Positions 7,063 through 28,050 of a stretch of 64,000 nucleotides of DNA are shown here, piece after piece; the stretch's first letter is position 1, and every line of letters starts with the position of its first letter. Source of the DNA: a virus (lineage: Duplodnaviria; Heunggongvirae; Uroviricota; Caudoviricetes). The DNA is taken from IMG/VR virus record IMGVR_UViG_3300022562_000399; one strand, 5' to 3'. A model generated the notes under the pieces. That model saw only the letters and a program-made list of their open reading frames with translations, searched no databases and had not been told where the DNA came from. The translations under genes were made by a program, and so were the position numbers.

Positions 7063-9368
7063 GCCGCTAGTTTCACCTCTTCCAGTTCGCCCCAGCTTGG
7101 CCCCGCCTCGAAGTCCACCGGGAACTTCAACGCTGGGGAGTACCCGAACACCTTCTCGATGGGCCGGTTCTCGCAGATCTCTTTGACGGCCAGGAGTATC
7201 CACGGCAAGTCCTCGGTCTTGGCGATGCCGGTGACACTGTCATGTGTCATTGCTACCAGCCCAGCCTCCGGGACCTCCTCCTCGATCTCCGCGATGGACC
7301 ACAGCATGAGGTCAGACAGCATCGACTGCACTGGGGAGTTGATCGCTTGCCGTTCAGCTTGGTGCTTCAATGCGTCGTCGCGCGAGTTGATCAGGGGCAG
7401 GTGACGGATGCGTCCCAACGGAGACTCGATCTGGTGCCGCTCTCGCGCGTAAGACAGCACGCGCTCGTACCACGGGTTCAAGTCGGGGTACGTGTCGAAG
7501 AACAACTCACGCTCGTGCCTGGCCATGGCCATCGTGATCTTCTGGCCCCAGGTACTCCAGCAGTACACGACGAAGCCGCCCGCGCTCATGCGGTAGACGA
7601 ACCCGAAGTTGGCGGCTTTGGCGCCGGATCGCGCCGCACTGTACTTGCCGGGGTCGGACTCCTTCAACAGCATGAACTCGGGCAGGGGCATCCCGATGCG
7701 GGCCGCCGCAGTCTTGGCGTGCAGGCTCATGCCCTGGTTGTAGGCTTCGAGCATTGCCCGCTCGTGCGCGAGCGTTGCAACTATGCGCAGTTCACCCTCA
7801 CTGTAGTCCACCTGCCAATACGAGTAGCCCTCGGGTGCCGTGTAGCACTTGCGCAACCTCTTCGCGATGGGCCCGTGCTTGGGTAGCGTCTGCATCGCGG
7901 GCGCCGTGCACGCGAGGCGTCCGGTCACCGTGCCGCGCTTCTTGTCGTCGTGCACGCCAACGCCGGAGAACAGCATGTACGAGGGATGGAACAGTCCGTC
8001 CTGCCGAAGGTGAGACAGGAACCCGTCGATGTAGGTGGACCTCGCCTTGGAGATCTTCGAGATCTTGCCCATGGCCTGGGCGAAGGGGCCACCAACCGGA
8101 TGCGTCTCGAACATGTCGAGATGTTCCTTGCTGGTCTTCGGCTCCTGCTTCTTCTCGGTCAGCAGCACAGGCTTCAAGTTGAGGCCCAGAGGTGTGAACA
8201 GAAAGTCTCGCAACAGAGCTGGACGCGACAGGCTCAAGTCGTCGGCGTACTTGGCTTTGATCCTCGGGGTGAGCATTGCCAGGGCTTCCTGCTCGGCCGC
8301 ATTCTCTTCCTTCACCAACTCGGATCGCAACTTGGCGAACGCCTCGACGTTCACCGGGATGCCGCGCGCCTCCATCTTCGCGAAGGCGATCTGGGCGGGG
8401 TGCAGAATGTGTTGGTAGAACTTGGTCAGCTTCGAGTGCTTGACCAACTCCGCGCGCATGTGCTGGGCCACGCGGAAGCAGGCGTCCGTGTCGCCGCCGA
8501 TGTACGGCAGCATCTCGTCCTTCGGCACCTTCTCCATGTGTGCCTTGTCGTGCTTCTCGTTGAACTCGTCGTCGTAGCCGCCGATGGGAGTGTAGAGCTT
8601 GGCGTGCAGGTTAAGATTGTTCGGTCGGTTCTCGTTCAGCAGAGACCCGATCAGCGTGGTGTCCAACGTATAGTTGGTGCACGACAATCCCCACTTGATC
8701 CGCAACCAGTTCAAGTCAAAGCCGCCGAAGTTGGCGCCCCAGAGCTTGACCTTGGGGCTGTTCAGCAACCAGTCGATCTCCTCCAACTGCTCGTGCGTTG
8801 GGCCCTCGGGGTAGGTGTAGATCACGTGCGACTCACCAGGCTTCACGGTCACGCCGATGCACACGATCTGGGCGCCGGGATCTTGCGGCACCACTCCCAT
8901 GGTCTCCAAGTCCAGCACCGTGGGCACGCGCACCGTCCACGACTGGATGTAGTCGATGATCTCTCCGAAGGAGTCCACGTACTTGTACGCGCCGACCTCC
9001 GGGGTCAGCTTGCCGGTCATTTCCGCACGCAGGGCCAGCCGCACGTCCCAGCGGATCTCGTCCAGCTTCGAGGGGTCAGCGGCTATCGAGCCGGGGGAGT
9101 AGGTGCACAGGAACTTGTGGCCCCCCTCGCCCAACGTCAGCTTGCCACGCAGAGAAGTGACCGTGCGGTTCTTGGGGTACACGCCCAAGTTCTGCAACAC
9201 CTTCAAGGGGTCGCCACCCATCGACAGCAGCACACCGTTGCCTGGGTCGGGGATCGACCCCTGACCAACGCGCCACAGCTTCACAGGCGGGCGTCCTGGG
9301 GTGGAGTCCAACACCGGACCCACCGCGCGCACAACTTTCTCTCGGTCCCCTTGGTAGTAGATCAGCAC
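7059..9368 (-). CDS. DNA polymerase I family A with 3'-5' proofreading exonuclease (T7-like DNAP)
   Basis: Exonuclease motifs LDLETMG, GANFGGFDLNWL and YIGGDTDA. Polymerase motifs TGRLACTAPAMQTLP, motif A VDYSEGELRIVATLA, motif B KAANFGFVYRMS and motif C VAMTHDSV. Confidence 0.9.
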   Translation of the reverse strand: MLIYYQGDREKVVRAVGPVLDSTPGRPPVKLWRVGQGSIPDPGNGVLLSMGGDPLKVLQNLGVYPKNRTVTSLRGKLTLGEGGHKFLCTYSPGSIAADPSKLDEIRWDVRLALRAEMTGKLTPEVGAYKYVDSFGEIIDYIQSWTVRVPTVLDLETMGVVPQDPGAQIVCIGVTVKPGESHVIYTYPEGPTHEQLEEIDWLLNSPKVKLWGANFGGFDLNWLRIKWGLSCTNYTLDTTLIGSLLNENRPNNLNLHAKLYTPIGGYDDEFNEKHDKAHMEKVPKDEMLPYIGGDTDACFRVAQHMRAELVKHSKLTKFYQHILHPAQIAFAKMEARGIPVNVEAFAKLRSELVKEENAAEQEALAMLTPRIKAKYADDLSLSRPALLRDFLFTPLGLNLKPVLLTEKKQEPKTSKEHLDMFETHPVGGPFAQAMGKISKISKARSTYIDGFLSHLRQDGLFHPSYMLFSGVGVHDDKKRGTVTGRLACTAPAMQTLPKHGPIAKRLRKCYTAPEGYSYWQVDYSEGELRIVATLAHERAMLEAYNQGMSLHAKTAAARIGMPLPEFMLLKESDPGKYSAARSGAKAANFGFVYRMSAGGFVVYCWSTWGQKITMAMARHERELFFDTYPDLNPWYERVLSYARERHQIESPLGRIRHLPLINSRDDALKHQAERQAINSPVQSMLSDLMLWSIAEIEEEVPEAGLVAMTHDSVTGIAKTEDLPWILLAVKEICENRPIEKVFGYSPALKFPVDFEAGPSWGELEEVKLAA

Positions 9369-11598: not shown

Positions 11599-11614
11599 TT
11601 GCAACTATCTTCAC
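11599..11614. repeat. 16-mer variant TTGCAACTATCTTCAC adjacent to a promoter
   Basis: 10-mer core GCAACTATCT. Confidence 0.45.
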
Positions 11615-12513
11615 TTCTCCCAGATCTGGTTGCCGTCGGGGCTCGGGTGCACCGTAGCCGTGGACACGGAGGGGGCCTTCTCCTTGATCAGGAAGCCCTT
11701 GGACGTGCGCACGTAGCCCCTCGGCGGGGGCTCCTGGGCGTCGGCCAGGTAGGGCTTCGTGATGGGCTCTCCGGGCAACTGAGGCAGCCCCTCGTTCAAG
11801 GGCTTCCACCGCTCGAACTCGTCCTGGTAGCCGGTCCAGTGCCGGTCGTGGTTGCCCCAGTGCTCGCCGTGGCCGCGCCCCTTGTACGACCTCGTGCTGG
11901 GGGATGCCGCCTTGCAGGCGTACCGCTCGACCAGGAACGCGATCTGTTCCTTGGTCTCGACCGCGTGCTTGCAGTAGTTCTCGCGCACATACTTGATCGG
12001 GTCGGGGTCGATCTCCAGGACCGACACCAGCGCCGCCAACAACATGCCCGTGCGACCGTGTCCGCCGATGCAGCCAACGTGCACGGCTCGTCCTTCTTGG
12101 ATCTCTCCGACCAGCCACAGCACCATCCGGTGGAATGATTTGGGGTCACTCGGCTTGTGCCCGTCCGTGATCTCGTACTTCACGCGCGTGGGTCCAGACT
12201 TCGGTGGCTCCCATGGCCATGGTGCGTCCGCTTGCATCCAGCGGTCCAGCCCCACGTACACGTCACACCCATCGAACACTGGGTCCGAACACGAGCCGCC
12301 GAACAGGTGGCGCCCGTTGCCAAGGGGGAGGGGCCGGTGCGTGTACGCACACTTGGAACTCGACAGCTTGCGACCCAGCGCGTGGACCACGCGCCCAGAG
12401 TACCAACTGCCCACCTGCAACGAGGACAACGCCCCGCGCTTCTCTTCTCTCACTGCCGCGAGGCTCACGACCTCGGCGCCCAGCTTCTTGCTCTTGCCTT
12501 TGTGCTTGCTCAC
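11611..12513 (-). CDS. Cys-based protein phosphatase (PTP/dual-specificity fold, CX5R)
   Basis: Active-site P-loop VHVGCIGGHGRTGMLLAAL. GTG start with AAGGAG RBS just after the upstream TAG. The first ~100 aa of the listed ORF is a junk extension. Confidence 0.6.
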   Translation of the reverse strand: MSKHKGKSKKLGAEVVSLAAVREEKRGALSSLQVGSWYSGRVVHALGRKLSSSKCAYTHRPLPLGNGRHLFGGSCSDPVFDGCDVYVGLDRWMQADAPWPWEPPKSGPTRVKYEITDGHKPSDPKSFHRMVLWLVGEIQEGRAVHVGCIGGHGRTGMLLAALVSVLEIDPDPIKYVRENYCKHAVETKEQIAFLVERYACKAASPSTRSYKGRGHGEHWGNHDRHWTGYQDEFERWKPLNEGLPQLPGEPITKPYLADAQEPPPRGYVRTSKGFLIKEKAPSVSTATVHPSPDGNQIWEK

Positions 12514-12521
12514 TCCTTCTC

Positions 12522-13625
12522 CTACGCCGCCATCGCAGCGGCCGGGACGTACTTCCCGTCCTCGGTTCTCACGAACTTCTTCACGTACACACCAGGCGCC
12601 ATCTCGTAAAACCCGGCCTTGTTCTCCTTCGCCATCTTCACGGTCTTCTCGATCTCGGTGGCTTCCGGTCCGCCCAGCTTCTTGGCGTAGGGAGTGGCGA
12701 GTCCGTAGGTCTTCGCCTGCAACTTCTTCTCCGCCTCGTAGTGTCCGTTGACCGCACCAAGCGCAGTGACTTTGTACCAGTCCACGTACTCGCCGAACCT
12801 CACCCACGGCAACCACTTCTTGACGGTCTCCAGCACGAGCCCCATGCCAATCGTTCCGTGGGTGTTGCCGGTCCCCGCAATGTACTCGGGGATCTGGCCC
12901 GACCTCTGCACGTCCAGGATGCGCCCTAGCTCGTGGGTGTAGCCACCGAAGAACAACCCCTTGTTGAAGATCGGCCCGTTGTTGTGGGCCAAGGTGAACG
13001 CGGTGTCCACCATGTTCTCCAGGCTCGCTTCACCTCTCAGCACTCGCGCCAAGCACGTGGTGATCTTGCCCCAGGGCTTGCCTCCGAAGCCCCCGGAGAA
13101 CGACCCGTGGAAGAAGCCCCACTCGATGGCACCGAAGAACTGCGCCACGGTGCAGGCTGGGGGGTTGTTCATCGTCTTCGAGTAACCAGCCTCCTCGCTC
13201 CCGCCCTTCAACGAGATCACGTGATCAGTCGCTTCGTTGCCGAACTGCTTCCGCATCTTCTCGGCTCCACTGCTACCAAGCGACATGTGCCGGATCTCAC
13301 GGATCGTGATGTAGCACAGGTAGTGGAACATGCGGAGGGCCGAAGCACTGCCGATCTCGTGGAACGAGTTGACGGCCGAAGCCGCCCCTGGGTCCAGAGG
13401 CTCGTGCTTGTCGTACCGCCTCACCACTTCGCCCAGCACGTGCTGCACCAAGTAGAACTTGACGGCCTCCAACTCCGGGCTAGGGTCGCCCTTCAAGTTC
13501 GCCCTGGCCTCCTTCGCCTGGGCTGCCCAATCCACCATCGACGAGGAGCCAAGGTCGCGAACGACCGTCAGCGGTCTCGCTCCTATCTGGTACGCCAGCG
13601 TGTCATGGGATGCGATCAGTGACAT
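12522..13625 (-). CDS. Hypothetical 367-aa protein with a Gly-rich motif
   Basis: Clean ATG with AAGGAGG RBS. Motif FSGGFGGKPWGKITTCLARVLRGE. No recognised catalytic signature. Sits between the two phosphatase paralogs. Confidence 0.45.
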   Translation of the reverse strand: MSLIASHDTLAYQIGARPLTVVRDLGSSSMVDWAAQAKEARANLKGDPSPELEAVKFYLVQHVLGEVVRRYDKHEPLDPGAASAVNSFHEIGSASALRMFHYLCYITIREIRHMSLGSSGAEKMRKQFGNEATDHVISLKGGSEEAGYSKTMNNPPACTVAQFFGAIEWGFFHGSFSGGFGGKPWGKITTCLARVLRGEASLENMVDTAFTLAHNNGPIFNKGLFFGGYTHELGRILDVQRSGQIPEYIAGTGNTHGTIGMGLVLETVKKWLPWVRFGEYVDWYKVTALGAVNGHYEAEKKLQAKTYGLATPYAKKLGGPEATEIEKTVKMAKENKAGFYEMAPGVYVKKFVRTEDGKYVPAAAMAA

Positions 13626-13660: not shown

Positions 13661-13689
13661 AAAGTACACCCGCCCGTCGGTTGTGTCAA
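13661..13689 (-). promoter_or_regulatory. Promoter: TTGACA-N17-TACTTT
   Basis: taggggTTGACAcaaccgacgggcgggtgTACTTTcaaggtgtactgag. Confidence 0.55.
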
Positions 13690-14165
13690 CCCCTAGCTGA
13701 AAAGAACTTGGCCCACAGCCGCTCGGCTCCGTAGTAGATCCGCAGCCAGAACACGGGGAAGGTCGCCACGAACCGCTCCTGCTCGTTCGTCTCCACGGCC
13801 TCCACACGGTAGTTCTGGCGCACGAAGTCGATGGCCTTGGGTCCGTTCAGGCCCTCAGTCACTCGTGCCACCAGGGCCAACAGCGTGCCCGTACGACCCC
13901 ACCCGAACCCGCACCCGACGTAGACCTTGTGGCCGTAGATCAGGGACCGCAGGACGAACCGCACAGCCTCCTTCACGGCCTCCAGATCCGTGGGCACTCC
14001 GAAGTCCGGCCAGTCCACCGTGAGGTTGGCAGGTCGCTTGTTGTTGGCCGCCAGGTTGACTCCCAGGTGGGTGGTCGGCTTGTCAAGATACGGACCGGCC
14101 AGGATCTCGCCTCCGGACGTTTCCATGGGGGTGGCACACGGGGCGCCTTTCAGATAGCTCTTCAT
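13686..14165 (-). CDS. Cys-based protein phosphatase paralog (CX5R)
   Basis: VYVGCGFGWGRTGTLLALV. The downstream segment IDFVRQNYRVEAVETNEQERF parallels IKYVRENYCKHAVETKEQIAF in the first phosphatase. ATGA overlap with the upstream gene. Confidence 0.6.
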   Translation of the reverse strand: MKSYLKGAPCATPMETSGGEILAGPYLDKPTTHLGVNLAANNKRPANLTVDWPDFGVPTDLEAVKEAVRFVLRSLIYGHKVYVGCGFGWGRTGTLLALVARVTEGLNGPKAIDFVRQNYRVEAVETNEQERFVATFPVFWLRIYYGAERLWAKFFSARG

Positions 14166-14430: not shown

Positions 14431-16329
14431 TCACTCCTTGCCTACCACTGCGAACACCGCAGCTTCCTCGGTCACCGCTTCCTTGACCATCGCGCATCTC
14501 TTGCCGAAGGTCTTCAAGATCGCCTCGGCTGCTTCCTTCGATCCCGCAGCTTCCACGAACCGCGCGTCTATCGCAATCGGATCTCCGCTACCAGCAGCCG
14601 CCAGAAGATCGGCCGTGTTGTTCACGGTCCTCGCGACCTTGTACCCGCAAGCAACCAACACCTTCACTTCTTCGTCGCTCGCGCCGTTGATCACCAAGCC
14701 CTTCATGGGTCGGTCGCACAGGTCGTTGATCAGGGCATCTCTCTCGGCCTCCTCCTTGGTGAGGTAGCTTTCTCCAACCAGGTTCCACAGTCTCGCGTCG
14801 CCCGCGTCTCTGTAGCCCCACGGACCGGCCAGGTTTAAGGTCACCTTCTTGGTCTTGCCCAGCTTCTTGTACGCCGCTCTGAACTCCTTCATCTTGGCCA
14901 GGGCCTTGCCTTCGGTGATCCAGTCCGCAACGTCCACGACCATGTCATTGGCCACCAGCTTGGCTCCCTTCCTGGTCACCGCCAACTCGGCCAGCGCCCA
15001 CTTTATCAAGACCTCGACCGCTTCGTCAGTCGCGCCGTCGATGATCTTCGGACCGTTCTCCGCGTGCCACACATTGCCGGTGCTGCCGTCCATGGTGATC
15101 GAGACCCCTTCGAGGTTGTCAATCTCCAGGTCGGTGGCGCCCACGATGCAGGGCTTGTCCAGCGATCTCGCGACAACTGCCGCGTGGCTGGTCGCGCCTC
15201 CGGTTCTGGTCAGCACACCCGCCGCCTTGATCATGTCGCCAAGGTGCTCGGGGCTGGTCTCTTCCGCGATCAGGATGTCACCCGGCTCGATGTTGCCTGG
15301 GGTCTTGGCCACTCCGGTCACGACTCCGTTGCACGCCGCGATCCCAACCACGTGGGCAGGCACCGCGTTGGTCGGGTCGATCATGGGCTTCCTGCTTGCC
15401 AAGAACTGCTTGCCGGTGATCCTGGCCAGGGCCTCCTTCCTGGTGATCAGTCCCTCGTGCTCCATGTCCACTGCAATCTTGATCGCAGCCTTGGCAGTCC
15501 TCTTCGCTGCCCTGGTCTGCAAGAGGTACAGCGTGCCGTCCTCGATGGTGAACTCCACGTCCTGCACGTCTCGGTAGTGCTTCTCCAGGTTGGTGACCAA
15601 ACCCAGCAACTCCTCGTGAAGGTGCTTGGGCAACTCAGTCAACGGCTTCGGGGTCCTGGTTCCGGCCACGACCTCTTCGCCCTGGGCGTTCATCAAGACC
15701 TCGCCCATCACGATGTTCTCGCCAGTGGCCGGGTGCCTCGTGAAGAGAACGCCCGACCCGCTGTTGTCGTTCATGTTGCCGAAGACCATCTTCTGGATCA
15801 CAACCGCAGTCCCCATGTTGTGGGGGATGCCGTTGTGCTCTCTGTAGATCACGGCACGCTCGTTGCCCCAGCTTTTGAACACGGCAATCACGGCCGCGAA
15901 GATCTGGTGCTTCAAGGTCGGACCGGGGTGGCAGCCGACCACGTCCAGGAACATGGCGTCCAGCCTCTTGTTGCAATCATCTGCAACGGCCGTCGGCAGT
16001 CCGTGGTTCACGCAGTTGGCGCCGACGTTCAGGATCGTGTCCATCATGCCTGGCATCGAGACCGGAGCGCCCGACCTCACCGCCCACAACGGAGCCTTGC
16101 CGAAGTTGGGCAGAGCCTCCACCAGGTGCATGATCTCGTCGATCATCTCCTCGACGACGACGACTCCGCGCTCCTGGAAGTCCAGGCAGGCAGAGGTTGG
16201 GATGATGATGGCGTGGGGAACCGGCAGGCCGTTCTGGGTCATTTCGACAAGGCCAGCGCCCTTGCCTCCCAGGATCGCCTTGTCCGGCTTCCCGTCAAAG
16301 TAGCTCGTGTTGTAGATCGTGTGCTTCAT
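14431..16329 (-). CDS. Pyruvate-phosphate-dikinase-like enzyme. It has the PPDK N-terminal nucleotide-binding domain and the phospho-His swivel domain but no PEP/pyruvate TIM barrel. The C-terminal ~190 aa is unknown
   Basis: PPDK signatures LGGKGAGLVEM, GLPVPHAIIIPTSAC and RSGAPVSMPGMMDTILNVGAN. Catalytic His motif TRTGGATSHAAVVARSLDKPCIVG. Ends at 632 aa with no barrel domain. ATG with RBS, and the promoter at 16360-16393 lies upstream. Confidence 0.75.
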   Translation of the reverse strand: MKHTIYNTSYFDGKPDKAILGGKGAGLVEMTQNGLPVPHAIIIPTSACLDFQERGVVVVEEMIDEIMHLVEALPNFGKAPLWAVRSGAPVSMPGMMDTILNVGANCVNHGLPTAVADDCNKRLDAMFLDVVGCHPGPTLKHQIFAAVIAVFKSWGNERAVIYREHNGIPHNMGTAVVIQKMVFGNMNDNSGSGVLFTRHPATGENIVMGEVLMNAQGEEVVAGTRTPKPLTELPKHLHEELLGLVTNLEKHYRDVQDVEFTIEDGTLYLLQTRAAKRTAKAAIKIAVDMEHEGLITRKEALARITGKQFLASRKPMIDPTNAVPAHVVGIAACNGVVTGVAKTPGNIEPGDILIAEETSPEHLGDMIKAAGVLTRTGGATSHAAVVARSLDKPCIVGATDLEIDNLEGVSITMDGSTGNVWHAENGPKIIDGATDEAVEVLIKWALAELAVTRKGAKLVANDMVVDVADWITEGKALAKMKEFRAAYKKLGKTKKVTLNLAGPWGYRDAGDARLWNLVGESYLTKEEAERDALINDLCDRPMKGLVINGASDEEVKVLVACGYKVARTVNNTADLLAAAGSGDPIAIDARFVEAAGSKEAAEAILKTFGKRCAMVKEAVTEEAAVFAVVGKE

Positions 16330-16359: not shown

Positions 16360-16393
16360 TCTCAGTATGCTCACAAATCGCGAGCCGTGTCAA
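16360..16393 (-). promoter_or_regulatory. Promoter-like: TTGACA ... (CA)TACTGA upstream of the PPDK-like gene
   Basis: agagggcTTGACAcggctcgcgatttgtgagcaTACTGAgaccg. Confidence 0.4.
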
Positions 16394-16681: not shown

Positions 16682-18586
16682 CTACTTCGTGGGTGGTCCC
16701 AGGAAGAGGGCTCCGGAGTCGTCCACCACGACCTCGATCACGGTCTCCTCCGGGCACGATCCCAGGTGGACCGCGATGTCCGGCATGGCCACCGGCAGGT
16801 AGGCACCACCCCCCAGGGCCGTCCACACCGCGATGGTGTCGCGCCCCTCCAACTCCTTCAACACGAGGGTCGGGCTCAAGTACATGGTGCCAGGCTTCGA
16901 CTTCTTTGGCATGGGGGGCACTGGTGCCTGTGTGGCCCCCTCCAGCCCGATCACATCCAGGAGGTTCTTGTCCATCTTCGCCAGCTTTTCAATGGCGTGG
17001 TGATGGATCTCCTGTAAGGCGTCGTGATTCACCGTGACACTGGCCAGCGGGGACTTCCCGAACTGGTTGGGGAAGTACGAGTCCTTGCTTTTGAAGAAGG
17101 CCATCTTCTCCAGGTGAGCCTTGCAGATCTGGTGCCATGACTCCTGGTGCGTAACCACTTTCTTCGGTGGGCCCAGGTCGCCCAACGTCGGCATGGACTG
17201 TAGGTCGGAGATGTGCTCGATCTCCTCCACGTCAGCAGGCCACCCTGGGCAGTGCTGGTAGTCGCACGTCAACCCGTGCTTGTAGCCTTTGGGCCCGAAC
17301 TCCGGTGGTGAGTACGCGCCGTCTGGGTAGGTCTTGATCAAGTACGCGAAGAACCCCGCCCAGGCCTTGCCGTAATGGAGGTGGCACAGGAAGTGGAACT
17401 GGGAAAGGTTGAACCGAATTTCGTGGTGGTGCCCTGTCTCCTTGTCGTGTTGGTGCAGAGTGTAGAACGACGACGAGGCGTCCCGCGTCAGGTGGTACGT
17501 CACGGACTCGCACTCCAACAGCGCGGGAGTTTTGACACTACTGTCCACCACCATCGAGAACTTCGGGTTGATCACGTACGGGTCGGACTTCTTCCCCAAC
17601 GCCTTAATGTACTGCTCGGGCTTCTTCGACTTCGCCGCCATCATGACCGCGTGGTTGACACAGACGATATGAAAATTGGGATTGTCGGCCGACATGCCAA
17701 GCACTGGTGGAAACCCTGGGCACGATGGAGCCTTGCACTTCTTCGAGTCCTTCGAGATTCCCCCGCTGGGCATGATGGTGCACACAAACGAGAAGAAGTC
17801 GAAGTCGTCGGCCAAGTACATCGTCTCGTGCAGATAGTGCAACTGCTCTTTGGTCACCGCGATCTCGTGCGGTTCGGCCTTCTGGTAGTTCTCGATCTTG
17901 TAGGAGTTGTAGATCGGGTTGTGGGTGATCTTGAAGACCTCCACTCCGTGCTGCCACACGCTACTCGGAATCGTCCACGCCTTGGGTCCAAACGAGGGCC
18001 ACAGCTTCTTCTTCATGTTCACGACCGTGTGCTCCATTGCGCAGAAGTGATGGACTCCCGCGTCGATGTCTTCCGCGAACCCGGCACCCAGGTGATAGTG
18101 CGGCCACCCTGGGCAGTTCTGATACAGACACCCCGCGCCCTCGACGAAGGACACGAGGGGGGCCGGGTGATTCGTGGCCATGTGGTTGGGCGGCCCCATC
18201 GTTGGGTGGTCGGGGTAGTTCTCGAACAGCCACCGCGCGAAGGCGATGTTGGTGTGGCTACTCATGGGAGACGTGGGGCCAAACAAGGCGGCCTTGGCAA
18301 TCATCCCCACTTGCGCGCATTGCGGCTCCGTCAGGACCAGCGAACGAGGCGCGAACTTCTTCGACTTCGACCTCCGCGTGATCATCGTGACCATGTTCGC
18401 GATGTCTTTCTCGAACTCGTAGATCACGTCGTCCTCGTCCGGCGCCCCGATGATCAACTCCTTGCTTGCTGGCTCGTACGCCTTCATGAAGGCGCCGAAC
18501 GACAGGTCCGTGTTCTGCACAGACTTTGACAGGGAGTCGAGGCCCCACCCCATGTTGTTCAGGGACTCCGTGAGCTTCTTGGCCAT
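16682..18586 (-). CDS. Large His/Cys-rich hypothetical protein with three CPG(W/F)P repeats
   Basis: Repeats LYQNCPGWPHYHLG, KAPSCPGFPPVLG and DYQHCPGWPADVEEIEH. Many His clusters (HHHEIRF, HHHAIEK). Trimmed to the ATG at 18586, which lies after the upstream TAA. Confidence 0.45.
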   Translation of the reverse strand: MAKKLTESLNNMGWGLDSLSKSVQNTDLSFGAFMKAYEPASKELIIGAPDEDDVIYEFEKDIANMVTMITRRSKSKKFAPRSLVLTEPQCAQVGMIAKAALFGPTSPMSSHTNIAFARWLFENYPDHPTMGPPNHMATNHPAPLVSFVEGAGCLYQNCPGWPHYHLGAGFAEDIDAGVHHFCAMEHTVVNMKKKLWPSFGPKAWTIPSSVWQHGVEVFKITHNPIYNSYKIENYQKAEPHEIAVTKEQLHYLHETMYLADDFDFFSFVCTIMPSGGISKDSKKCKAPSCPGFPPVLGMSADNPNFHIVCVNHAVMMAAKSKKPEQYIKALGKKSDPYVINPKFSMVVDSSVKTPALLECESVTYHLTRDASSSFYTLHQHDKETGHHHEIRFNLSQFHFLCHLHYGKAWAGFFAYLIKTYPDGAYSPPEFGPKGYKHGLTCDYQHCPGWPADVEEIEHISDLQSMPTLGDLGPPKKVVTHQESWHQICKAHLEKMAFFKSKDSYFPNQFGKSPLASVTVNHDALQEIHHHAIEKLAKMDKNLLDVIGLEGATQAPVPPMPKKSKPGTMYLSPTLVLKELEGRDTIAVWTALGGGAYLPVAMPDIAVHLGSCPEETVIEVVVDDSGALFLGPPTK

Positions 18587-18602
18587 CTTTTGGGCCGTCT
18601 TC

Positions 18603-18857
18603 TTATCGGGTAGTGCCACACTCCGCCTCCAACTCTCGCGCCAAGTTCTCCATCTCGATCTCCGCCTTGGCAATGGACTTCAACACTTCCCACCTCGACC
18701 GCCGATCCTCGCCTGTCAGGATGCGGAAGCAGTGCGTGCAGAACCAGATGATCTCTCGGTCCCACAGGTCCCGAAGAATGCCGATCTTGCGGCGACTCTT
18801 GTCCTCTCCGCAGAGGCAGCACTCCGGAGCCAGGGTCTCATGGAAGCAGCTTGACAC
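18603..18857 (-). CDS. Small Cys-rich (zinc-finger-like) protein
   Basis: CCLCGEDK...CTHC pattern. Confidence 0.3.
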   Translation of the reverse strand: MSSCFHETLAPECCLCGEDKSRRKIGILRDLWDREIIWFCTHCFRILTGEDRRSRWEVLKSIAKAEIEMENLARELEAECGTTR

Positions 18858-19196
18858 GCTACTGAGTGCGCCACACGCGCACGCCCCCGCTCACGGCTCG
18901 GACCGTGTGGTTCTGCTCGGGGGCATGTCGCTTGCGGAACTGGTTGGCGCCCGACACCAACGAGGCGCGCACGGACGACAGGTCCGCCTTCTTCGGGACC
19001 GCGACGAAGAACGAGTCTCCGACGTTCAGCTTGTTCCACGGGTACAGCTTGCGCTTGTTTCCCATCCCGCGTCTGGGCAGGGGCACGTTCTTGTCCACTT
19101 TGATCATCGCATCCAACACCATGTTGTCTTCCTCCTGTACGTATACGACGAGGGCCCGCAAGGGCCCTCGCCAGTCTTCGGTCTCTTGTCTCCTGG

Positions 19197-19433
19197 TCAG
19201 TCCATGTATCCGTTGGGGTAGTCACGCCCGCCCCAGCAACGGTCGCAGGGCTCCGTGTGGTAGCGGAAGGACTTCTTCCTCCGCTTCTCTCCACGACCAC
19301 GGTATCCGTCCGTCGTGTCCACTACGTAGAACTTGGGGGTCTCGCGAACCACCGTGCCTTCCTTCAAGCAGGGCCCGCAGGGGGAGAATCGAAAGAGTGG
19401 CTTGTCCATCGTTTGGCCTCCTTGCCGTGTCAT
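19197..19433 (-). CDS. Small Cys-containing hypothetical protein
   Basis: ORF downstream of the promoter at 19451-19479. Confidence 0.3.
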   Translation of the reverse strand: MTRQGGQTMDKPLFRFSPCGPCLKEGTVVRETPKFYVVDTTDGYRGRGEKRRKKSFRYHTEPCDRCWGGRDYPNGYMD

Positions 19434-19450
19434 GTCTCGCCTACAGTTTC

Positions 19451-19479
19451 AAGGTACGCCTGGGAGGCTCCTTTGTCAA
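19451..19479 (-). promoter_or_regulatory. Conserved phage promoter: TTGACA-N17-TACCTT
   Basis: ggtaTTGACAaaggagcctcccaggcgTACCTTgaaactgtaggcgag. Confidence 0.55.
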
Positions 19480-19525
19480 TACCCATCCCGATCTTTTTTC
19501 GCGTCCTCACGTTGGGCCTTGTCGA

Positions 19526-19888
19526 TCAGCGACTTGCGGCGATCCTGCATGGGGCCTCCGGGCTTTCCAGCGTTGCTGGGGAGCCGGATTCTGGCCCAGG
19601 CTGGCTTCTCTTTCCTGGTCTTCGACACGTCCTTGCTTCTGCTCTCTCGTCTGCCGCCGCGATCCTCTCGGCCATCTCTCGCACGTCCTTCGGTCGGTAG
19701 CAGTCCCAGCAGCCTCCAAGACTCCATCGTATCTTACGGCCGCAGATACCGCAAGCGTTCTCTCGCAGGTGTCCGAAAATAGGAGCCGGTGGAGAAGCGC
19801 CGTGTGACACCAACGCGAACGGAGGACACCACCCCTCGACCGCGTGCCACTCGTTTGCGTGCCAGTTCGCCAGTTGGGCTAAGTACAT
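19526..19888 (-). CDS. Cys-rich hypothetical protein
   Basis: ATG preceded by AAGGGAGG. A palindromic 16-mer lies just upstream. CGICGRK...CWDC motif. Confidence 0.3.
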   Translation of the reverse strand: MYLAQLANWHANEWHAVEGWCPPFALVSHGASPPAPIFGHLRENACGICGRKIRWSLGGCWDCYRPKDVREMAERIAAADERAEARTCRRPGKRSQPGPESGSPATLESPEAPCRIAASR

Positions 19889-19903
19889 GCTTCCTCCCTT
19901 AGG

Positions 19904-19919
19904 TTGCAACTATCTTCAA
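19904..19919. repeat. 16-mer variant TTGCAACTATCTTCAA
   Basis: Just upstream of the RBS and ATG of gene 19526..19888. Confidence 0.45.
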
Positions 19920-20117
19920 AATGTTCCCGCCAAGATCCGCTTCATGCGTTTGCCCGTTGGCCGTCGTGTTGCCACTGCCTCTCTTCGGAAGTTCTTGGGT
20001 GCTGGGGGAAGTTCTCCCGAGCCCTTGCAAGCAGAACAACAGCGAACCCACCACTCACTCTTCCACGGTACGCGAAGCAGACGGCGTCCGCTGCCTCGAC
20101 ACACCCCACACCTCACG

Positions 20118-20834
20118 TCAGACCGATGCCGTTGCAAGGCGACCCTCCTGTAGCAATCCCCACACGGTCGGGCACCAGTGCTGGAGAATGTCGTTCTCGA
20201 TCACCCGAGCGTACTCGCGAATCTCTGCTTGAGCGTGGGAGTCGTTGCGTAGCTCCAGGAAGTGCAGCAGGTTGCGCAGGTCCGTCTTCCAGTACCAACT
20301 CGTGTACAAGTTCAGGCCCAGGGCCAGGCGGGCAGTCTCGCGCGACACCCCACGCTCCAGCCACTTGTCGTAGACCTTTAGCTGCTGCTCGCACAGCAGG
20401 GTCAGATCCGTGGCGAACTCCTTGGCCTCCCAGATCGGCAGCTTCTCCGCGCTGCCCTGCTTGTTCTTCTTGTCCTGGTATCGCACCAGGTCGGGCGCCG
20501 GGATGTAGAAATCGCGACACGCCTCCGAGTAGCGCAGTGACTCCTCGTTCACGCTCGCCGTGCGGTGTCGTATCCACTGCCGCGCCACGAAGATCGGCAG
20601 CTTCACGTGTAGCGTGATCTCAGCCATCTCGAAGGGAGACATGTGCTTGTTGCGATACAGGTACGCCACCAGCTTGTCGTCTTCCCTCTTCGTCCTCGTG
20701 CCCGACCCGTAGGACACGCGCGCAGCCTGCACGATGCTCGACTCGTCGCCCATCACATTGACGACGCGCAGAAGCCCGTGATCTAACACCCCCCACACAG
20801 CAGACCGCCAGTGTCCACCCATGGGGGAGACCAT
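20118..20834 (-). CDS. thyX: Flavin-dependent thymidylate synthase ThyX
   Basis: ThyX signature RHRTASVNEESLRY. Trimmed to MVSPMGG. The upstream part of the listed ORF is a junk extension. Confidence 0.85.
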   Translation of the reverse strand: MVSPMGGHWRSAVWGVLDHGLLRVVNVMGDESSIVQAARVSYGSGTRTKREDDKLVAYLYRNKHMSPFEMAEITLHVKLPIFVARQWIRHRTASVNEESLRYSEACRDFYIPAPDLVRYQDKKNKQGSAEKLPIWEAKEFATDLTLLCEQQLKVYDKWLERGVSRETARLALGLNLYTSWYWKTDLRNLLHFLELRNDSHAQAEIREYARVIENDILQHWCPTVWGLLQEGRLATASV

Positions 20835-20851
20835 CCCGTCCGGAGGCAGCG

Positions 20852-21334
20852 TCACGCCAAGACCTCCGCCCTCTGCTCGCGCGTTTTGTGGAGGAGTTTG
20901 AGGTAACGCCGGGCCGCCTTCTCTCGGGTTCTCATGGTGATCTCCGCCCGTACTTCTCGCCGCCACTTGTACAGGTCTTCGCTCCACGCCTTCCAGGACT
21001 TGCCGAACTCGATGGCGAACTTGCCCCACCAGTTGCATCTCGGGATGCCGTACTCCGTGGCTATCTTCTCGATCAAGGGCACGTTCGGCTCCTCCCACGC
21101 GAACGCCTCCACCATGGGATAGGGCGTGCCGGTCAGGAAGGCGTAGGCCAGCAGGTGGGCTCTCACCATTGGCCTGTAGTGGCCGTCCACCATCGCCTGT
21201 CTTCGGCGTCTCCGATCCTCCGTCTTGGCCTTGCCGACGAGGGCCTTGGCTTCGGCCAACTCCACCATCAGTCCCTTGATCCGCAGCTTCAACTGCGGCA
21301 GCTTCTCGACCTTGCGGCCATCCAATCTAGTCAT
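20852..21334 (-). CDS. Hypothetical protein
   Basis: ORF abutting thyX. Confidence 0.35.
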   Translation of the reverse strand: MTRLDGRKVEKLPQLKLRIKGLMVELAEAKALVGKAKTEDRRRRRQAMVDGHYRPMVRAHLLAYAFLTGTPYPMVEAFAWEEPNVPLIEKIATEYGIPRCNWWGKFAIEFGKSWKAWSEDLYKWRREVRAEITMRTREKAARRYLKLLHKTREQRAEVLA

Positions 21335-21470
21335 CGCTTTCCTCCTGGTTTGGTTGTTGCTCGTCGTCGTTTGTCTCGCACGTAGCGAAAGAGGGCCACC
21401 GAGAACAGATACACCACGGTGGCCATGGTGATGAACACGGCCAGGATCTCGTACTCCATTCGCCTCCTCC

Positions 21471-21857
21471 TCACGAGCCTTTATATTCGTCCAGGAAGAC
21501 GTTGATCAGGTTGGCACTCTGAGGCTGCACTGAAATGGTGCTGTGTCCGGAGATCACCAGGCGCCTTCCGTACTTGTTGCCACGCAGGCTGCGCAACGAA
21601 ACTTCGATGGAGTCCGCGTGCGTGCGGTTGGGATCACTGCTCATGCGAAAGACCGCGTGGTCAGCCAATGCGATGGGCGTGTACTGGTCCTTCCGTTCGA
21701 TGTACCCAGCGTCGATCTTCAACGCCTCGGTGTAGGAGTCTGCGGTGTTGAGTCTGTCCCGCAACACCACGTTCTCGTTGGCCAGACTCAGGACGAGTGA
21801 CTGCACCCACTGCGGTTGCTTCGCCAGCTTCGCCCACGCCTCCTTCTCGATCTTCAT
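21471..21857 (-). CDS. Hypothetical protein
   Basis: ORF. ATGA overlap with the upstream ORF 21854..22174. Confidence 0.3.
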   Translation of the reverse strand: MKIEKEAWAKLAKQPQWVQSLVLSLANENVVLRDRLNTADSYTEALKIDAGYIERKDQYTPIALADHAVFRMSSDPNRTHADSIEVSLRSLRGNKYGRRLVISGHSTISVQPQSANLINVFLDEYKGS

Positions 21858-22174
21858 GCCGCTGCCTTTGCCTCCTTCGCCTTCGCCTTGGCTGCTTCCT
21901 TCAACTCGGCCACGATCTCCGGGAGCATGTCGAAGTACACTTCCTCGGCCGTCTCCGTGGTCACCGCGTAGCCCCTAGTGTTCAGGTGGTGGACCTTCAC
22001 GTCGTACAGGTCGGGGCCCGGCCTGTAGATGATGTCCACGTTGAACACGTGGTAGCGGTTGGCCGTGTGAAGGCGGAGCGTGTTGGCGTCTACGGCGTAG
22101 AGCTTCACGCCTCTGCCCGTCATGCCCATGGCCTTGACTTGGGCCGCGATTGTCTTGACTGTGTTGGTGATCAT
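21854..22174 (-). CDS. Hypothetical protein
   Basis: ORF downstream of the promoter at 22208-22236. Confidence 0.3.
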   Translation of the reverse strand: MITNTVKTIAAQVKAMGMTGRGVKLYAVDANTLRLHTANRYHVFNVDIIYRPGPDLYDVKVHHLNTRGYAVTTETAEEVYFDMLPEIVAELKEAAKAKAKEAKAAA

Positions 22175-22207
22175 CCGATTGCCTCCTTGCTTTCTCGATC
22201 CACTTTG

Positions 22208-22236
22208 AGCCTACGCCTCCCGCGCTGCCATGTCAA
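22208..22236 (-). promoter_or_regulatory. Promoter: TTGACA-N17-TAGGCT
   Basis: gacgcTTGACAtggcagcgcgggaggcgTAGGCTcaaagtgg. Confidence 0.5.
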
Positions 22237-22826
22237 GCGTCCTCGGTCAGGAACCGCACCGCCTGGTTCAGGAGTCCCCACGCGGTGGTGCCTCGGTCTG
22301 CCTCGGGGGTCTTCCGCATGGCGTCCCGCATCCCGTCCACGACCATGTGCGCCAGGAAGGGCACCTTGTTCACATCGTAGATCATGAACCACCACCAGTC
22401 CGCGTTCCAGCTTCGAGCCGCCGTCCCCAGCAGCCGGGACAGGGCGTCCTTGTACCGGCGAGCCAGCCCCACCGACAAGGTCGCGCTGCGGTTGACGTAG
22501 TTGTCGTAGAGATCGACCAGCTTGACCAGGGTGGCCGCTCGGAACAGTCCGATGCGCTCGATGTAGGATTGGTAGGTCTCCACCTTGGGGTCACGACTCA
22601 CGAGCCGCACCAGGTCGATGGTCTGCGCCTTGAAGTGGGACGCCCACAGCAACCCCTCGGACATGAACCCGTCCTCCATCATGTCGTGCAGGTAGCCTGC
22701 CGCCACGATCTCCTCGGGCACTCCCATCACCGCGAGCCAGTCGCCCACGCGCACGGGATGCGACTCCAACCCGTACCACTCCACCGCCAGTTCTCGTGCC
22801 TCTCCCGCCTTGGTCTTCTTGGTCAT
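22233..22826 (-). CDS. HD-domain phosphohydrolase-like protein
   Basis: H...HD pattern (HPVRVGDW ... AAGYLHDMMED). Confidence 0.45.
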   Translation of the reverse strand: MTKKTKAGEARELAVEWYGLESHPVRVGDWLAVMGVPEEIVAAGYLHDMMEDGFMSEGLLWASHFKAQTIDLVRLVSRDPKVETYQSYIERIGLFRAATLVKLVDLYDNYVNRSATLSVGLARRYKDALSRLLGTAARSWNADWWWFMIYDVNKVPFLAHMVVDGMRDAMRKTPEADRGTTAWGLLNQAVRFLTEDA

Positions 22827-24636: not shown

Positions 24637-26547
24637 TTAGCGAACAACCTGGAGCCTGGCCTCTCCGGGAGTCCCGTGGCCCCTCTCCTCTTGCTGGTAG
24701 TTGGACGCCTTCTTGGCCTCTGCTCTCTTGGTCAACCACTCCGGGATCTTCGACGTGGGGATGCCAGCACGGCGCCAGATCTCCCTCTGCATGTGCAGGC
24801 CGAAGCACACCCCAGCCAAGGCATCAGCGCAGTCCTTCGAGCCGTGGGGTGGGTGGTCGATCATGCCCTTCTTCGGCTCGCGCTCCAGCATCACCAACTC
24901 CTTCAAGACGAACTCGTGCTTGGGGGCGATGATGCGACCGTCGTAGAACGCTTGCTTGGTGACCTCGTAACCGTCGGTGGTCTTGTCCAGGGACACGGTG
25001 CCCACGCGGAAGCCTTGGGCCTTCAACATCTGCATGGAGTCCTTGCTCTGGTAGGTATCGAAGGACACCCACCGGATGTCCACGAACTCACGGACTCCGT
25101 ACAACACGCGCCGGATGTTCTCGAACTGGATCTCGCCGGACGGAGGTGGCTTCACCTGGAGGATGAAGTCGTACTGGATGATCGGCAGGATCTCCACCGC
25201 CTGGTCTCTCCGGACGTTCATCCACCCAGCCACGTGGCCCATGGCGACGCCCGCAGAGTCAGACGACACGGCCAGGTCGATGTGCACGTAGCGCGGCGCC
25301 TGGGGGTTGCAGATCTTGCCGGTCAGCAGTTGCAATTGTGTGCGCTCGAAGTCCACGTCCTCCCTGCTCAGTATCGACTCGACCTTGCCGAAGGAGTCGG
25401 CCACCTTGTCGGTGTTCATCATGAACGGGTGCATCGACTGCGTGGCCACGCCACCGATGTCGCGCAGAGCGTTCAGCAGATCGTTCTCGAACTGGTGGTA
25501 GAACTCAATGGGGACCGACAGCACCATGTCTGGGTTGCTCTCGGTGTCGTCGTCTTTCAGGATGCGAGGCTTGCGGTTCTCGTTGCCGATGAAGACGTGG
25601 AAGCGTTGCGTGCCGAAGGCATCCGGCTTCACATCCCACAGCCTCTTGTTGTACACGAAGATGCGGGCACCTGGCTTGTGTGCTTCTGCGATCTTCTGGT
25701 CCGTGAACTGGCCGGGGTAGTTGGCCGAAGACACCAGGCACAGCATCCCTGGCATGTTGCCCTTGTCCATGAACCTCGACTCTCGGCGCCGTGCGATGGA
25801 GTTGTAGAGCGCCTTGGCTTGGTCGAACTCGTTGTTTTCCCCGCGTGCCTTCTTCGAGTCCTTGACGATGGCCATGAAGTTCATCTCGTCCAGGATGCCC
25901 CCGATCACGTTCTGGCCGATGGCGCCCGTGGCGTCGCCAGACACAGGCTTGACGACGATGCGGTTGGGGAAGCGTAGCTCCGACGTTATGGTGGGGTCGT
26001 AGATGAAGTTCTTCTGGAACCATTGGCAGCGGTCGATGATCGCCTTGAATCGCGTGTAATCAACCGCCTTCGCGAGCGATGCCGAGATGCTTTGGAAGAT
26101 CACCATGATCTCGGAGGTGGGGTCCAGGCCCATCTCGTCGTGCGGGCTCTCCATGCACCCCAGCTTGTATAGCTCGTACGCTTGCGCGTACAGGGCGATG
26201 GTCGTCTTGGCTGTACCGATGCCGCCCGTCAGCACCGCCTCGATGTACTTGCCCGACGTGATCTCCTCGATGGCCTCCATGACGGCTGGCCAGATCGCGC
26301 CCTTCTGGTGCAAGAACACGTCCGACTCGATGAACTCTCGCGGGTGCACAGGCTCGCACCTGTAGACCGGCTGGTGGATGGCGTTGGCCCACAGGTTCCC
26401 CAGTCTCTCGATGGCTTCGAGGCGACTACAGTTGGCGACCTCGTCGGGCCATGGGCAGAGGTTGTCTCGGTAGTAGGACCAATCCTCGTCACTCAGGATC
26501 TTGAGGGCGTCCAGTTCTTTAGGCGTCGGTACTCTCACCGCTATCAA
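24637..26547 (-). CDS. Terminase large subunit
   Basis: Walker A VLTGGIGTAKTT and Walker B ILDEMNFM. C-terminal RNase-H-like nuclease region (HIDLAVSSDSAGVAMGH). Confidence 0.9.
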   Translation of the reverse strand: MIAVRVPTPKELDALKILSDEDWSYYRDNLCPWPDEVANCSRLEAIERLGNLWANAIHQPVYRCEPVHPREFIESDVFLHQKGAIWPAVMEAIEEITSGKYIEAVLTGGIGTAKTTIALYAQAYELYKLGCMESPHDEMGLDPTSEIMVIFQSISASLAKAVDYTRFKAIIDRCQWFQKNFIYDPTITSELRFPNRIVVKPVSGDATGAIGQNVIGGILDEMNFMAIVKDSKKARGENNEFDQAKALYNSIARRRESRFMDKGNMPGMLCLVSSANYPGQFTDQKIAEAHKPGARIFVYNKRLWDVKPDAFGTQRFHVFIGNENRKPRILKDDDTESNPDMVLSVPIEFYHQFENDLLNALRDIGGVATQSMHPFMMNTDKVADSFGKVESILSREDVDFERTQLQLLTGKICNPQAPRYVHIDLAVSSDSAGVAMGHVAGWMNVRRDQAVEILPIIQYDFILQVKPPPSGEIQFENIRRVLYGVREFVDIRWVSFDTYQSKDSMQMLKAQGFRVGTVSLDKTTDGYEVTKQAFYDGRIIAPKHEFVLKELVMLEREPKKGMIDHPPHGSKDCADALAGVCFGLHMQREIWRRAGIPTSKIPEWLTKRAEAKKASNYQQEERGHGTPGEARLQVVR

Positions 26548-27787: not shown

Positions 27788-28050
27788 TCCTGGCCTCCTG
27801 TTAGCCCTACCTTCAAGGTGGGCTCGTTATTCTCGTCCGTGAACTCCAACTCCGGCTTCGGCACCAGCAACCGGGCCACCTCGTCTTCGAGGGCCGCACC
27901 CAGTGGCATCTTGCACCGAAGGAGCACGCCCCCCACGTCGAAGTTCTGCACCGTGCACCGCTCCGTCAAGATCAGCTTGGGGTGCATCGAGTCAGGCCGC
28001 ATCATAGTGCAGCCAGCCAACAGCAACAGCGCGAGGGGCAGTATCTTCAC
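27784..28050 (-). CDS. Lipoprotein
   Basis: GTG start with AAGGAG RBS. Lipobox LLLLAGC. GTGA overlap with the upstream gene. Confidence 0.45.
   Translation of the reverse strand: MKILPLALLLLAGCTMMRPDSMHPKLILTERCTVQNFDVGGVLLRCKMPLGAALEDEVARLLVPKPELEFTDENNEPTLKVGLTGGQE

Follow-up and report, generated by a model that had tools for sequence, protein, structure and literature searches.

A 64,000-nucleotide stretch of DNA from a virus of the Caudoviricetes (IMG/VR record IMGVR_UViG_3300022562_000399), here called the window, carries a gene for a truncated homolog of pyruvate,phosphate dikinase (PPDK), referred to below as the dikinase. The gene stands in a block with a small CsrA-family open reading frame (ORF), two genes for Cys phosphatases of the protein tyrosine phosphatase (PTP) type, PTP1 and PTP2, and a gene for an orphan enzyme-like protein that we call partner X (Table 1). 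The dikinase comprises an ATP-grasp domain, a phospho-histidine swivel domain and a TIM-barrel-like C-terminal domain, the mini-barrel, and it matches the profile of PHROG 18609 ('kinase') with an E-value of 1.2e-136 and 458 bits. The position and the size of about 632 aa given for this ORF in a preliminary description of the locus proved exact. A Shine-Dalgarno sequence, AAGGAAG, lies 4 nt 5' of the ATG. The upstream gap holds a match to a sigma-70-like promoter; promoter-like sites in the dikinase region numbered 2, against 1.5 +/- 1.3 by chance, and were therefore not above chance.

The preliminary description had assigned the N-terminal part to PPDK on account of several motifs and had recognized a phospho-histidine swivel. 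All the motifs (ILGGKGAGLVEM, NGLPVPH, VRSGAPVSMPGMMDTILNVGAN and TGGATSHAAVVARSLDKPCIVG) are present in the translated ORF, and searches of Pfam, NCBIfam and the PDB as well as Foldseek matched PPDK. The Pfam scan of the dikinase returned PPDK_N (E 4.9e-47) and, at residues 347-418, the PEP-utilizers mobile domain (PF00391, E 4.4e-24), and no match to PEP-utilizers_C (PF02896). In the PDB, sequence similarity to PPDK (1kbl/9pzl, E 2e-88) spanned residues 17-421 only. The top NCBIfam model was NF004531, a short actinobacterial 'PpdK', with 411.8 bits (cutoff 456), and the model of true PPDK, TIGR01828, scored 399.4 bits (cutoff 843.45); both scores are under the respective cutoffs, and both matches are limited to residues of about 14-452.

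To identify invariant columns, 50 diverse relatives of the dikinase were aligned. Residues K23, R85, D257, E259, Q271 and R273 are invariant and correspond, in the PDB alignment, to K22, R92, D321, E323, Q335 and R337 of Clostridium symbiosum PPDK. The swivel motif T380-S381-H382, of the PPDK type G-G-x-T-S-H, is likewise invariant. Replacement of the catalytic His in homologs was looked for and not seen, the residue being kept in all 120 relatives retrieved. The swivel domain is the best-conserved domain of the family, with a mean pairwise identity of 56% (49% for the ATP-grasp domain). With this complete set of ATP- and His-site residues, the dikinase therefore lacks none of the residues that ATP-dependent pyrophosphoryl transfer to His requires. 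Homology, together with the precedent of the mycobacterial protein VadK described below, suggests that His382 would be autophosphorylated in an ATP-dependent manner.

The protein ends where PPDK continues into its phosphoenolpyruvate (PEP)/pyruvate domain. In a tblastn search with a genuine 880-aa PPDK, the query aligned only via its residues 16-525 (window 16281-14995), and its TIM barrel had no match in any frame within the 64-kb window. The dikinase stop codon is followed 2 nt on by a different gene. A hidden frameshift into a TIM barrel was considered and rejected, as nothing matched past PPDK residue 525 and the downstream ORFs encode the CsrA-like protein and a PTP. Because there is no barrel match in any frame and another gene begins 2 nt past the stop, the truncation, as already claimed in the preliminary description, is real. 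Across the family, 176-288 residues (median 243) follow the His motif, while true PPDKs have about 430.

The nature of the remaining C-terminus was addressed by structure prediction. A full-length AlphaFold2 model built from a 50-sequence alignment reached a pLDDT of 92.3 and a pTM of 0.88, and a separate model of residues 425-632 a pLDDT of 90.9. In these models residues 425-632 form a TIM-barrel-like series of about 6-7 beta/alpha units, and Foldseek aligned the full model with PPDK structures over about 800 columns, continuing through the barrel. In sequence, the domain has drifted far. Comparison with the PPDK barrel by hhalign gave a probability of 0.7%, with only the linker helix and its Trp left; a profile search of the PDB was empty, and a BFVD fold search with the mini-barrel gave no significant match. 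At 20% mean pairwise identity, it is the fastest-evolving domain of the dikinase. The preliminary description, which had reported an unrelated C-terminus of about 190 aa, was thus right about the size and wrong about the relationship, since both the models and Foldseek show a reduced barrel-type fold.

None of the columns is invariant across 31 aligned C-terminal domains, and Arg, Lys, His and Cys are nowhere conserved. Conserved polar positions number only two, D511 (86%) and 499, where 80% of the domains have Asp and that of the window has Asn; they are located at the C-terminal end of strand beta-3 and in the next loop. The C-terminal ends of the strands and the loops that follow them are the usual catalytic face of a barrel. 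PPDK binds PEP and pyruvate with Arg561, Arg617, Glu745, Asn768, Asp769 and Cys831. As conserved Arg, Lys, His and Cys are all missing, no canonical PEP/pyruvate ligand constellation is possible in the mini-barrel. On the most economical reading, the mini-barrel would be what is left of the ancestral barrel after shrinkage and degeneration, kept for structure, dimerization or docking; it would neither have been recruited as a new substrate module nor still work as a pyruvate site. D511 may possibly form a residual Mg2+ site.

The gene order around the dikinase is conserved. In every clade member examined, the block runs terminase, small ORFs, dikinase, small ORFs, PTP1, partner X and PTP2, and continues in the members examined with a few small genes, DNA polymerase A and the portal gene. 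The order dikinase-PTP-X-PTP is kept in the phages RcZahn, DLP_3, Ares1 and RHph_Y1_11 and in two prophages. In the window, the CsrA-like ORF appears translationally coupled on both sides, to the dikinase by a 2-nt gap and to PTP1 by an ATGA overlap. It scores 28.1 bits against PF02599 (cutoff 27), with MLTLTLKESHTVFVGD at its N-terminus, RLMFDAPRAIKIFRAEL at its C-terminus and an insertion between them; RcZahn gp7 is its homolog (33% identity). Its sequence suggests a phage-borne RNA-binding protein resembling the carbon storage regulator.

PTP1 exceeds the PF00102 cutoff (25 bits against 20.9), resembles the small archaeal SsoPTP and carries features of classical phosphotyrosine (pTyr) phosphatases; seven phages were compared and showed no variation in its general-acid Asp, C-x5-R-T-G loop or E-T-x-x-Q loop. 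PTP2 is read from a GTG start at 12513 with AGGAG 5 nt upstream. It falls under the Pfam cutoffs, yet its C-x5-R P-loop, general-acid Asp loop and Q-loop are intact, and the alignments of both phosphatases show the catalytic motifs as invariant. PTP2 with intact motifs is present in the alphaproteobacterial and gammaproteobacterial (non-Vibrio) members and in part of the Vibrio subclade. The naming of these genes in public resources is misleading: PHROG 17568 is labelled 'thymidylate synthase' though it is a family of PTP-fold C-x5-R phosphatases (PTP1/PTP2 in the window; 12590-13366 in the related locus L002), a wrong name carried over to DLP_3 gp141 and DLP_5, and the gene in the PTP2 slot is named 'transporter' in Vibrio phage papers.

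Partner X is strikingly conserved. In its alignment 33 columns are invariant, most of them polar, and it has a loop rich in glycine, S-G-G-Y-G-G-K-x-W-G. Proteins in its slot across the clade are hypotheticals of 340-480 aa. The family is very large, with 2056 representatives at E<1e-3 and 644 at E<1e-30 (at least 644 clusters at 50% identity), and among sequenced phages it was found in 40 records, all of the dikinase clade. A profile search of the PDB and a Pfam scan of 36 members detected no remote homology, and an exhaustive profile search returned close relatives only. We also considered that partner X might supply the PPDK barrel in trans, given the resemblance of its CTRESRH to CRTEHMF of PPDK, and rejected this (hhalign probability 0.08%; no PF02896 in 36 members).

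The preliminary description had proposed a check for homologs of the dikinase in related phages; it had missed that they form a widespread, catalogued family, PHROG 18609, and that the gene stands in a conserved block with the PTPs and partner X. By tblastn the homologs were found in 61 phage records, the informative ones being complete genomes, about 40 in number, from a single siphovirus clade (80-105 kb) whose sequenced members all have the gene: the Vibrio phages like SIO-2, VHS1 and Ares1, the Stenotrophomonas phages DLP_3, DLP_5 and Summit, the Rhizobium phages RHph_TM16 and Y1_11, and Rhodobacter phage RcZahn. The roughly 40 complete isolate genomes label the gene PPDK or kinase. Metagenomes yielded well over 100 relatives of 600-750 aa that have the two Pfam domains of the dikinase and lack a barrel; most lie on 90-105 kb contigs, and the identical protein is found on a contig of 103,161 bp. 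The window has the backbone of this clade (TerL at 24637-26547, PolA, portal and replication genes); a near-identical relative was not found among sequenced phages. Vibrio phage J14 (KY022433) was examined as a case of natural module decay and set aside, its record being marked UNVERIFIED and ridden with frameshifts. Every gene in that record is broken up, the dikinase and polymerase genes included, which looks like sequencing error.

Taken together, these data make it probable, in our judgement, that His382 is charged by ATP, that the pyruvate step has been lost, that the acceptor is supplied in trans, likely within the module of dikinase, PTPs and partner X, and that the mini-barrel serves as a scaffold or docking surface. 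The dikinase would descend from a bacterial PPDK and would have kept the first half of its chemistry: ATP would be bound by the ATP-grasp domain, the beta,gamma-pyrophosphoryl group moved to His382 of the swivel domain, and the gamma-phosphate then lost to inorganic phosphate (Pi) or water, leaving phosphorylated His382 and AMP. The third step of PPDK, from phospho-His to pyruvate, would be gone, the mini-barrel of about 190 aa lacking the Arg, Glu, Asp and Cys ligands, and PPDK activity with it. Because the pyruvate step appears lost and the barrel is without ligands, the phosphoryl group should pass to a non-pyruvate acceptor, presumably presented in trans. Most plausibly this would be a protein, or a protein-held ligand, of the co-inherited module, that is PTP1 (and PTP2) and partner X, with PTP1 and PTP2 removing or relaying the phosphate; the mini-barrel would most likely now act as a scaffold, dimerization or docking surface. 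The co-inheritance and coupling of dikinase, PTP1 and partner X suggest a joint function. The preliminary description had suggested a host metabolite, a nucleotide or an immune signal as candidate acceptors. It had proposed a phospho-His kinase with a non-pyruvate target, which remains a sensible reading in view of the invariant ATP/His machinery, the absence of a PEP/pyruvate domain and the VadK precedent.

Several observations weigh against this proposal. The module has been seen solely inside one clade, in which the whole backbone is syntenic; the linkage of its genes may therefore reflect shared ancestry and not function. Independent bacterial contexts were sought, and the two cases examined turned out to be prophages of the same clade with identical synteny. 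The Vibrio sublineage of Ares1 and VHS1 has no recognizable PTP2, this gene being replaced there, and Bacillus phage G has a lone 365-aa version of the dikinase with none of the partners. Finally, given its two conserved acidic positions, the mini-barrel could itself retain a residual catalytic site.

A broader version of the proposal, which we put forward only tentatively, is that dikinase, PTP1/PTP2 and partner X make up an unrecognized phosphotransfer system of the phage. ATP would charge His382, the phosphate would go to an acceptor that is macromolecular or held by a partner (host protein, glycan or DNA), and the Cys phosphatases would relay it or remove it. If true, a globally distributed siphovirus clade would hold the viral equivalent of the cycle that glucan dikinase and phosphatases form in plants, or a relay from His to Cys like that of the phosphotransferase system (PTS).

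The strongest competing explanation starts from VadK (Rv1127c) of Mycobacterium tuberculosis, described in 2026 (PMC13400623). This PPDK homolog has no barrel; with ATP and Mg2+ it phosphorylates itself on His422, it does not use pyruvate, and it controls the methylcitrate cycle via protein contacts. By analogy, VadK is the closest functional precedent for the phage dikinase. On this view the dikinase would not be a transferase acting on a metabolite; its phospho-His state could control its binding to host or phage proteins, the mini-barrel being the host-specific target surface and the PTPs unrelated to it, acting for example on host Tyr-phosphoproteins. The precedent of autophosphorylation combined with protein-protein regulation speaks for this idea, as do the pTyr phosphatase features of PTP1 and the mini-barrel itself, which diverges far faster than the other domains with its fold kept, as expected for a surface that tracks host targets. 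However, after mycobacterial vadK loci had been located by a published primer sequence, the dikinase proved no nearer to VadK of M. triplex (40.5% identity, 278 bits) than to true PPDK (42.3%, 340 bits), VadK and PPDK being 42.1% identical, and it stays under the cutoff of NF004531. The phage module also has no counterpart of Rv1126c, the tight operonic partner of VadK, and the strict co-inheritance and coupling with PTP1 and partner X suggest that these act jointly. We therefore regard a VadK-like regulator as a real but clearly less probable possibility.

In plants, the glucan water dikinase (GWD), a His-swivel dikinase without a pyruvate barrel, is accompanied by two Cys-based phosphatases of dual-specificity type, SEX4 and LSF2. 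In a cycle of this kind, the phage dikinase would phosphorylate a polymer (a glycan, or DNA of phage or host), partner X would recognize it or modify it further, and the PTPs would dephosphorylate it. Starch phosphorylation uses the same set of enzymes, and the block adjoins DNA polymerase A in the interval from the terminase gene to the portal gene. In addition, the DNA of the Stenotrophomonas phage DLP_3, which carries the module, resists 15 restriction enzymes by a modification that was not identified (PMC7326821). Nevertheless, a carbohydrate- or DNA-binding domain was not detected in the dikinase, PTP1, partner X or PTP2, and the domain order is unlike that of GWD. The restriction resistance is documented in one member only and may be explained by glycosyltransferase and WbqC/PIG-L clusters, and our literature search found no paper tying a dikinase to phage DNA modification or hypermodification. 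A reversible or transient polymer phosphorylation cycle is therefore unlikely. The arabinosyl-5-hydroxycytosine pathway of a phage 'DLP3' (NAR 2026) was also considered for the DNA modification of the clade and discarded, this DLP3 being an unrelated Acinetobacter phage.

Less probable still is a stand-alone small-molecule kinase with the C-terminal domain as a dedicated substrate module, which the preliminary description had favored on what it called the same logic as rifampin phosphotransferase (RPH). RPH, PigC/RedH and phenylphosphate synthase are precedents, with weak NCBIfam matches over the shared domains, and D511 and position 499 are conserved on the usual catalytic face. But a substrate module is hard to reconcile with the lack of any invariant column, and of any conserved basic residue, Cys or His, among 31 C-terminal domains, and with a domain that evolves fastest of all and has the fold of a reduced ancestral barrel, not of a recruited one. 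The comparison with RPH did not hold: the His domain of the dikinase is central, and the score of the protein, 69 bits, is under the cutoff of 999. The published annotation as a genuine PPDK, an auxiliary metabolic gene (AMG) of glycolysis or gluconeogenesis, can draw on strong PPDK similarity over two-thirds of the protein, on its use in genome papers and on the adjoining CsrA-like homolog of the carbon storage regulator, but we give it almost no credence given the missing PF02896, the TIGR01828 score of 399 against 843, a half-sized barrel without conserved PEP/pyruvate ligands, and a missing barrel that is neither partner X (0.08% by hhalign) nor encoded elsewhere in the window.

This bears on the literature, in which dozens of phage genome papers carry the gene as a glycolytic AMG. 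Genome papers on Vibrio phages (PMC9229204, PMC10141217, PMC10671443) assign it to the EMP pathway as an AMG for PPDK, and the missing domain is mentioned in none of the three. The label 'glycolytic AMG' is very probably wrong, and since the dikinase has no PEP/pyruvate site, phage manipulation of host carbon metabolism via this enzyme is an inference to drop. The dikinase would instead be the second PPDK known to have become a phospho-His kinase with another acceptor, and the first from a virus, with the former pyruvate barrel caught in a shrunken, fast-evolving state. Its co-inheritance with intact Tyr/dual-specificity-type phosphatases and a large orphan family points to an uncharacterized phosphorylation pathway in the core of the clade, several of whose 80-105 kb phages are under development for phage therapy and aquaculture.

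Table 1. Genes, domains and sites of the dikinase region and of the adjacent insertion (positions in the window).
Feature	Coordinates	Strand	Basis or remarks
Dikinase gene	14431..16329	-	ATG start, 632 aa, PHROG 18609; ATP-grasp, phospho-His swivel and mini-barrel
Residues 1-320, ATP-grasp nucleotide-binding domain	15370..16329	-	Pfam PPDK_N, PPDK alignment, invariant columns
Residues 321-424, phospho-histidine swivel (PEP-utilizers mobile) domain	15058..15369	-	Pfam, family alignment
Catalytic His382 codon, motif GGATSHAAVVAR	15184..15186	-	Kept in 120/120 relatives
Residues 425-632, linker helix (conserved Trp444) and TIM-barrel-like mini-domain	14434..15057	-	
Sigma-70-like promoter match TTGACA-18-CATACT	16364..16393	-	Gap upstream of dikinase
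CsrA-family ORF, 88 aa	14162..14428	-	PF02599, coupling; homolog in RcZahn
PTP1, 159-aa classical-type Cys phosphatase (phrog_17568)	13686..14165	-	PF00102, invariant motifs
Partner X, 367-aa orphan enzyme-like protein (phrog_20946)	12522..13625	-	33 invariant residues
PTP2, 300-aa paralogous Cys phosphatase, Cys-rich N-terminal part	11611..12513	-	Catalytic motifs
HD-domain protein	22233-22826	-	Within window-specific insertion
DUF7239	21471-21857	-	Within window-specific insertion
ThyX thymidylate synthase, extra N-terminal extension of ~110 aa	20118-21098	-	Within window-specific insertion
DUF7303	18859-19161	-	Within window-specific insertion

The surroundings of the block have features of their own. 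All genes of the window lie on the minus strand, and the backbone is unusual (3693-9368, 24637-26547): about 19 kb of metabolic genes separate the terminase large subunit gene from the portal gene, which DNA polymerase A immediately adjoins. Between TerL and the dikinase the window has an insertion (18859-22826, minus strand) that is not there in RcZahn, DLP_3, Ares1 and Y1_11. Directly upstream of the dikinase, at 16682-18673 (minus strand), a 663-aa orphan carries three C-x4-C-P-G-[W/F]-P motifs at residues 187, 318 and 475, possibly zinc knuckles judging by the pattern; it had no Pfam, PHROG or PADLOC match and is absent at the same locus of related phages. A 207-aa protein (28047-28670, minus strand) has conflicting labels, matching phrog_2252 ('endolysin; inhibits RNA polymerase') with E 1.6e-38 and phrog_801 (dATP/dGTP pyrophosphohydrolase) with E 4.9e-26. 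In the prophage relatives, a protein with an Acb1 domain (anti-CBASS phosphodiesterase) and another, of 1136 aa, that has an ADP-ribosylating exotoxin domain lie past the portal gene (L006 22027-22121; L007 21385-22103). A PADLOC search for a defence or anti-defence role gave no matches.

Retargeted dikinases of the PPDK type are established (RPH, GWD and VadK), and the phage family was already catalogued and annotated. What is new here is the recognition of the mis-annotation and of a barrel that is degenerate, neither absent nor replaced, along with an origin independent of VadK and the conserved partnership with two PTP-fold phosphatases and an orphan enzyme family. The phage dikinase shares with PPDK (EC 2.7.9.1, TIGR01828, 1kbl) the order of the domains, the nucleotide- and His-site residues, the linker helix and a C-terminal domain that is still of beta/alpha barrel type; in the ATP-grasp and His domains the two are about 42% identical. 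It differs from PPDK in the size of this barrel (about 190 against about 340 aa), which has no detectable sequence similarity and no PEP, pyruvate or Mg ligands, in being encoded in a block with phosphatases and in scoring far under the TIGR01828 cutoff.

Like VadK (NF004531/PRK05878), the dikinase appears to be a PPDK descendant without the pyruvate half-reaction, and NF004531 is the top NCBIfam model for the phage protein. VadK, however, ends about 100 aa past its His domain, while the phage protein keeps a folded mini-barrel, and the VadK partner Rv1126c is a winged-helix protein unrelated to the PTPs or partner X. Because its identity to VadK is no higher than to PPDK, the dikinase is best seen as an independent PPDK offshoot with a parallel outcome. 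Rv1126c was also considered as a split-off equivalent of the mini-barrel and rejected, being winged-helix plus helical; its comparison by hhalign with the mini-barrel, with partner X and with PTP2 gave probabilities of <0.5%. In the mycobacterial loci (L014 5530-7239 and 4932-5537, both minus strand; L008 2997-4799, plus strand), the VadK tail extends for about 100 aa after the His domain, and a downstream Rv1126c-like partner of 201 aa has a winged-helix motif at its start. Tail and partner potentially bear on how VadK finds its targets.

The resemblance to the other systems is more distant. RPH (NF041857, 5hv1) likewise reuses the ATP-grasp domain and the swivel His for a non-pyruvate acceptor, but in the order ATP-grasp, rifampin-binding and C-terminal His domain, and Foldseek identity to the phage protein is 12%. 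Enzyme I of the PTS takes its phosphate from PEP at a barrel that is intact, and in place of ATP-grasp it has an N-domain that binds HPr; its sequence matches to the dikinase cover the His domain only. With GWD, the phage system would share, by analogy, a His dikinase without pyruvate barrel and two Cys phosphatases, whereas GWD is built from CBM45 domains followed by the His and the nucleotide domain, and the phage protein from PPDK_N followed by the PEP-utilizers domain, with no CBM.

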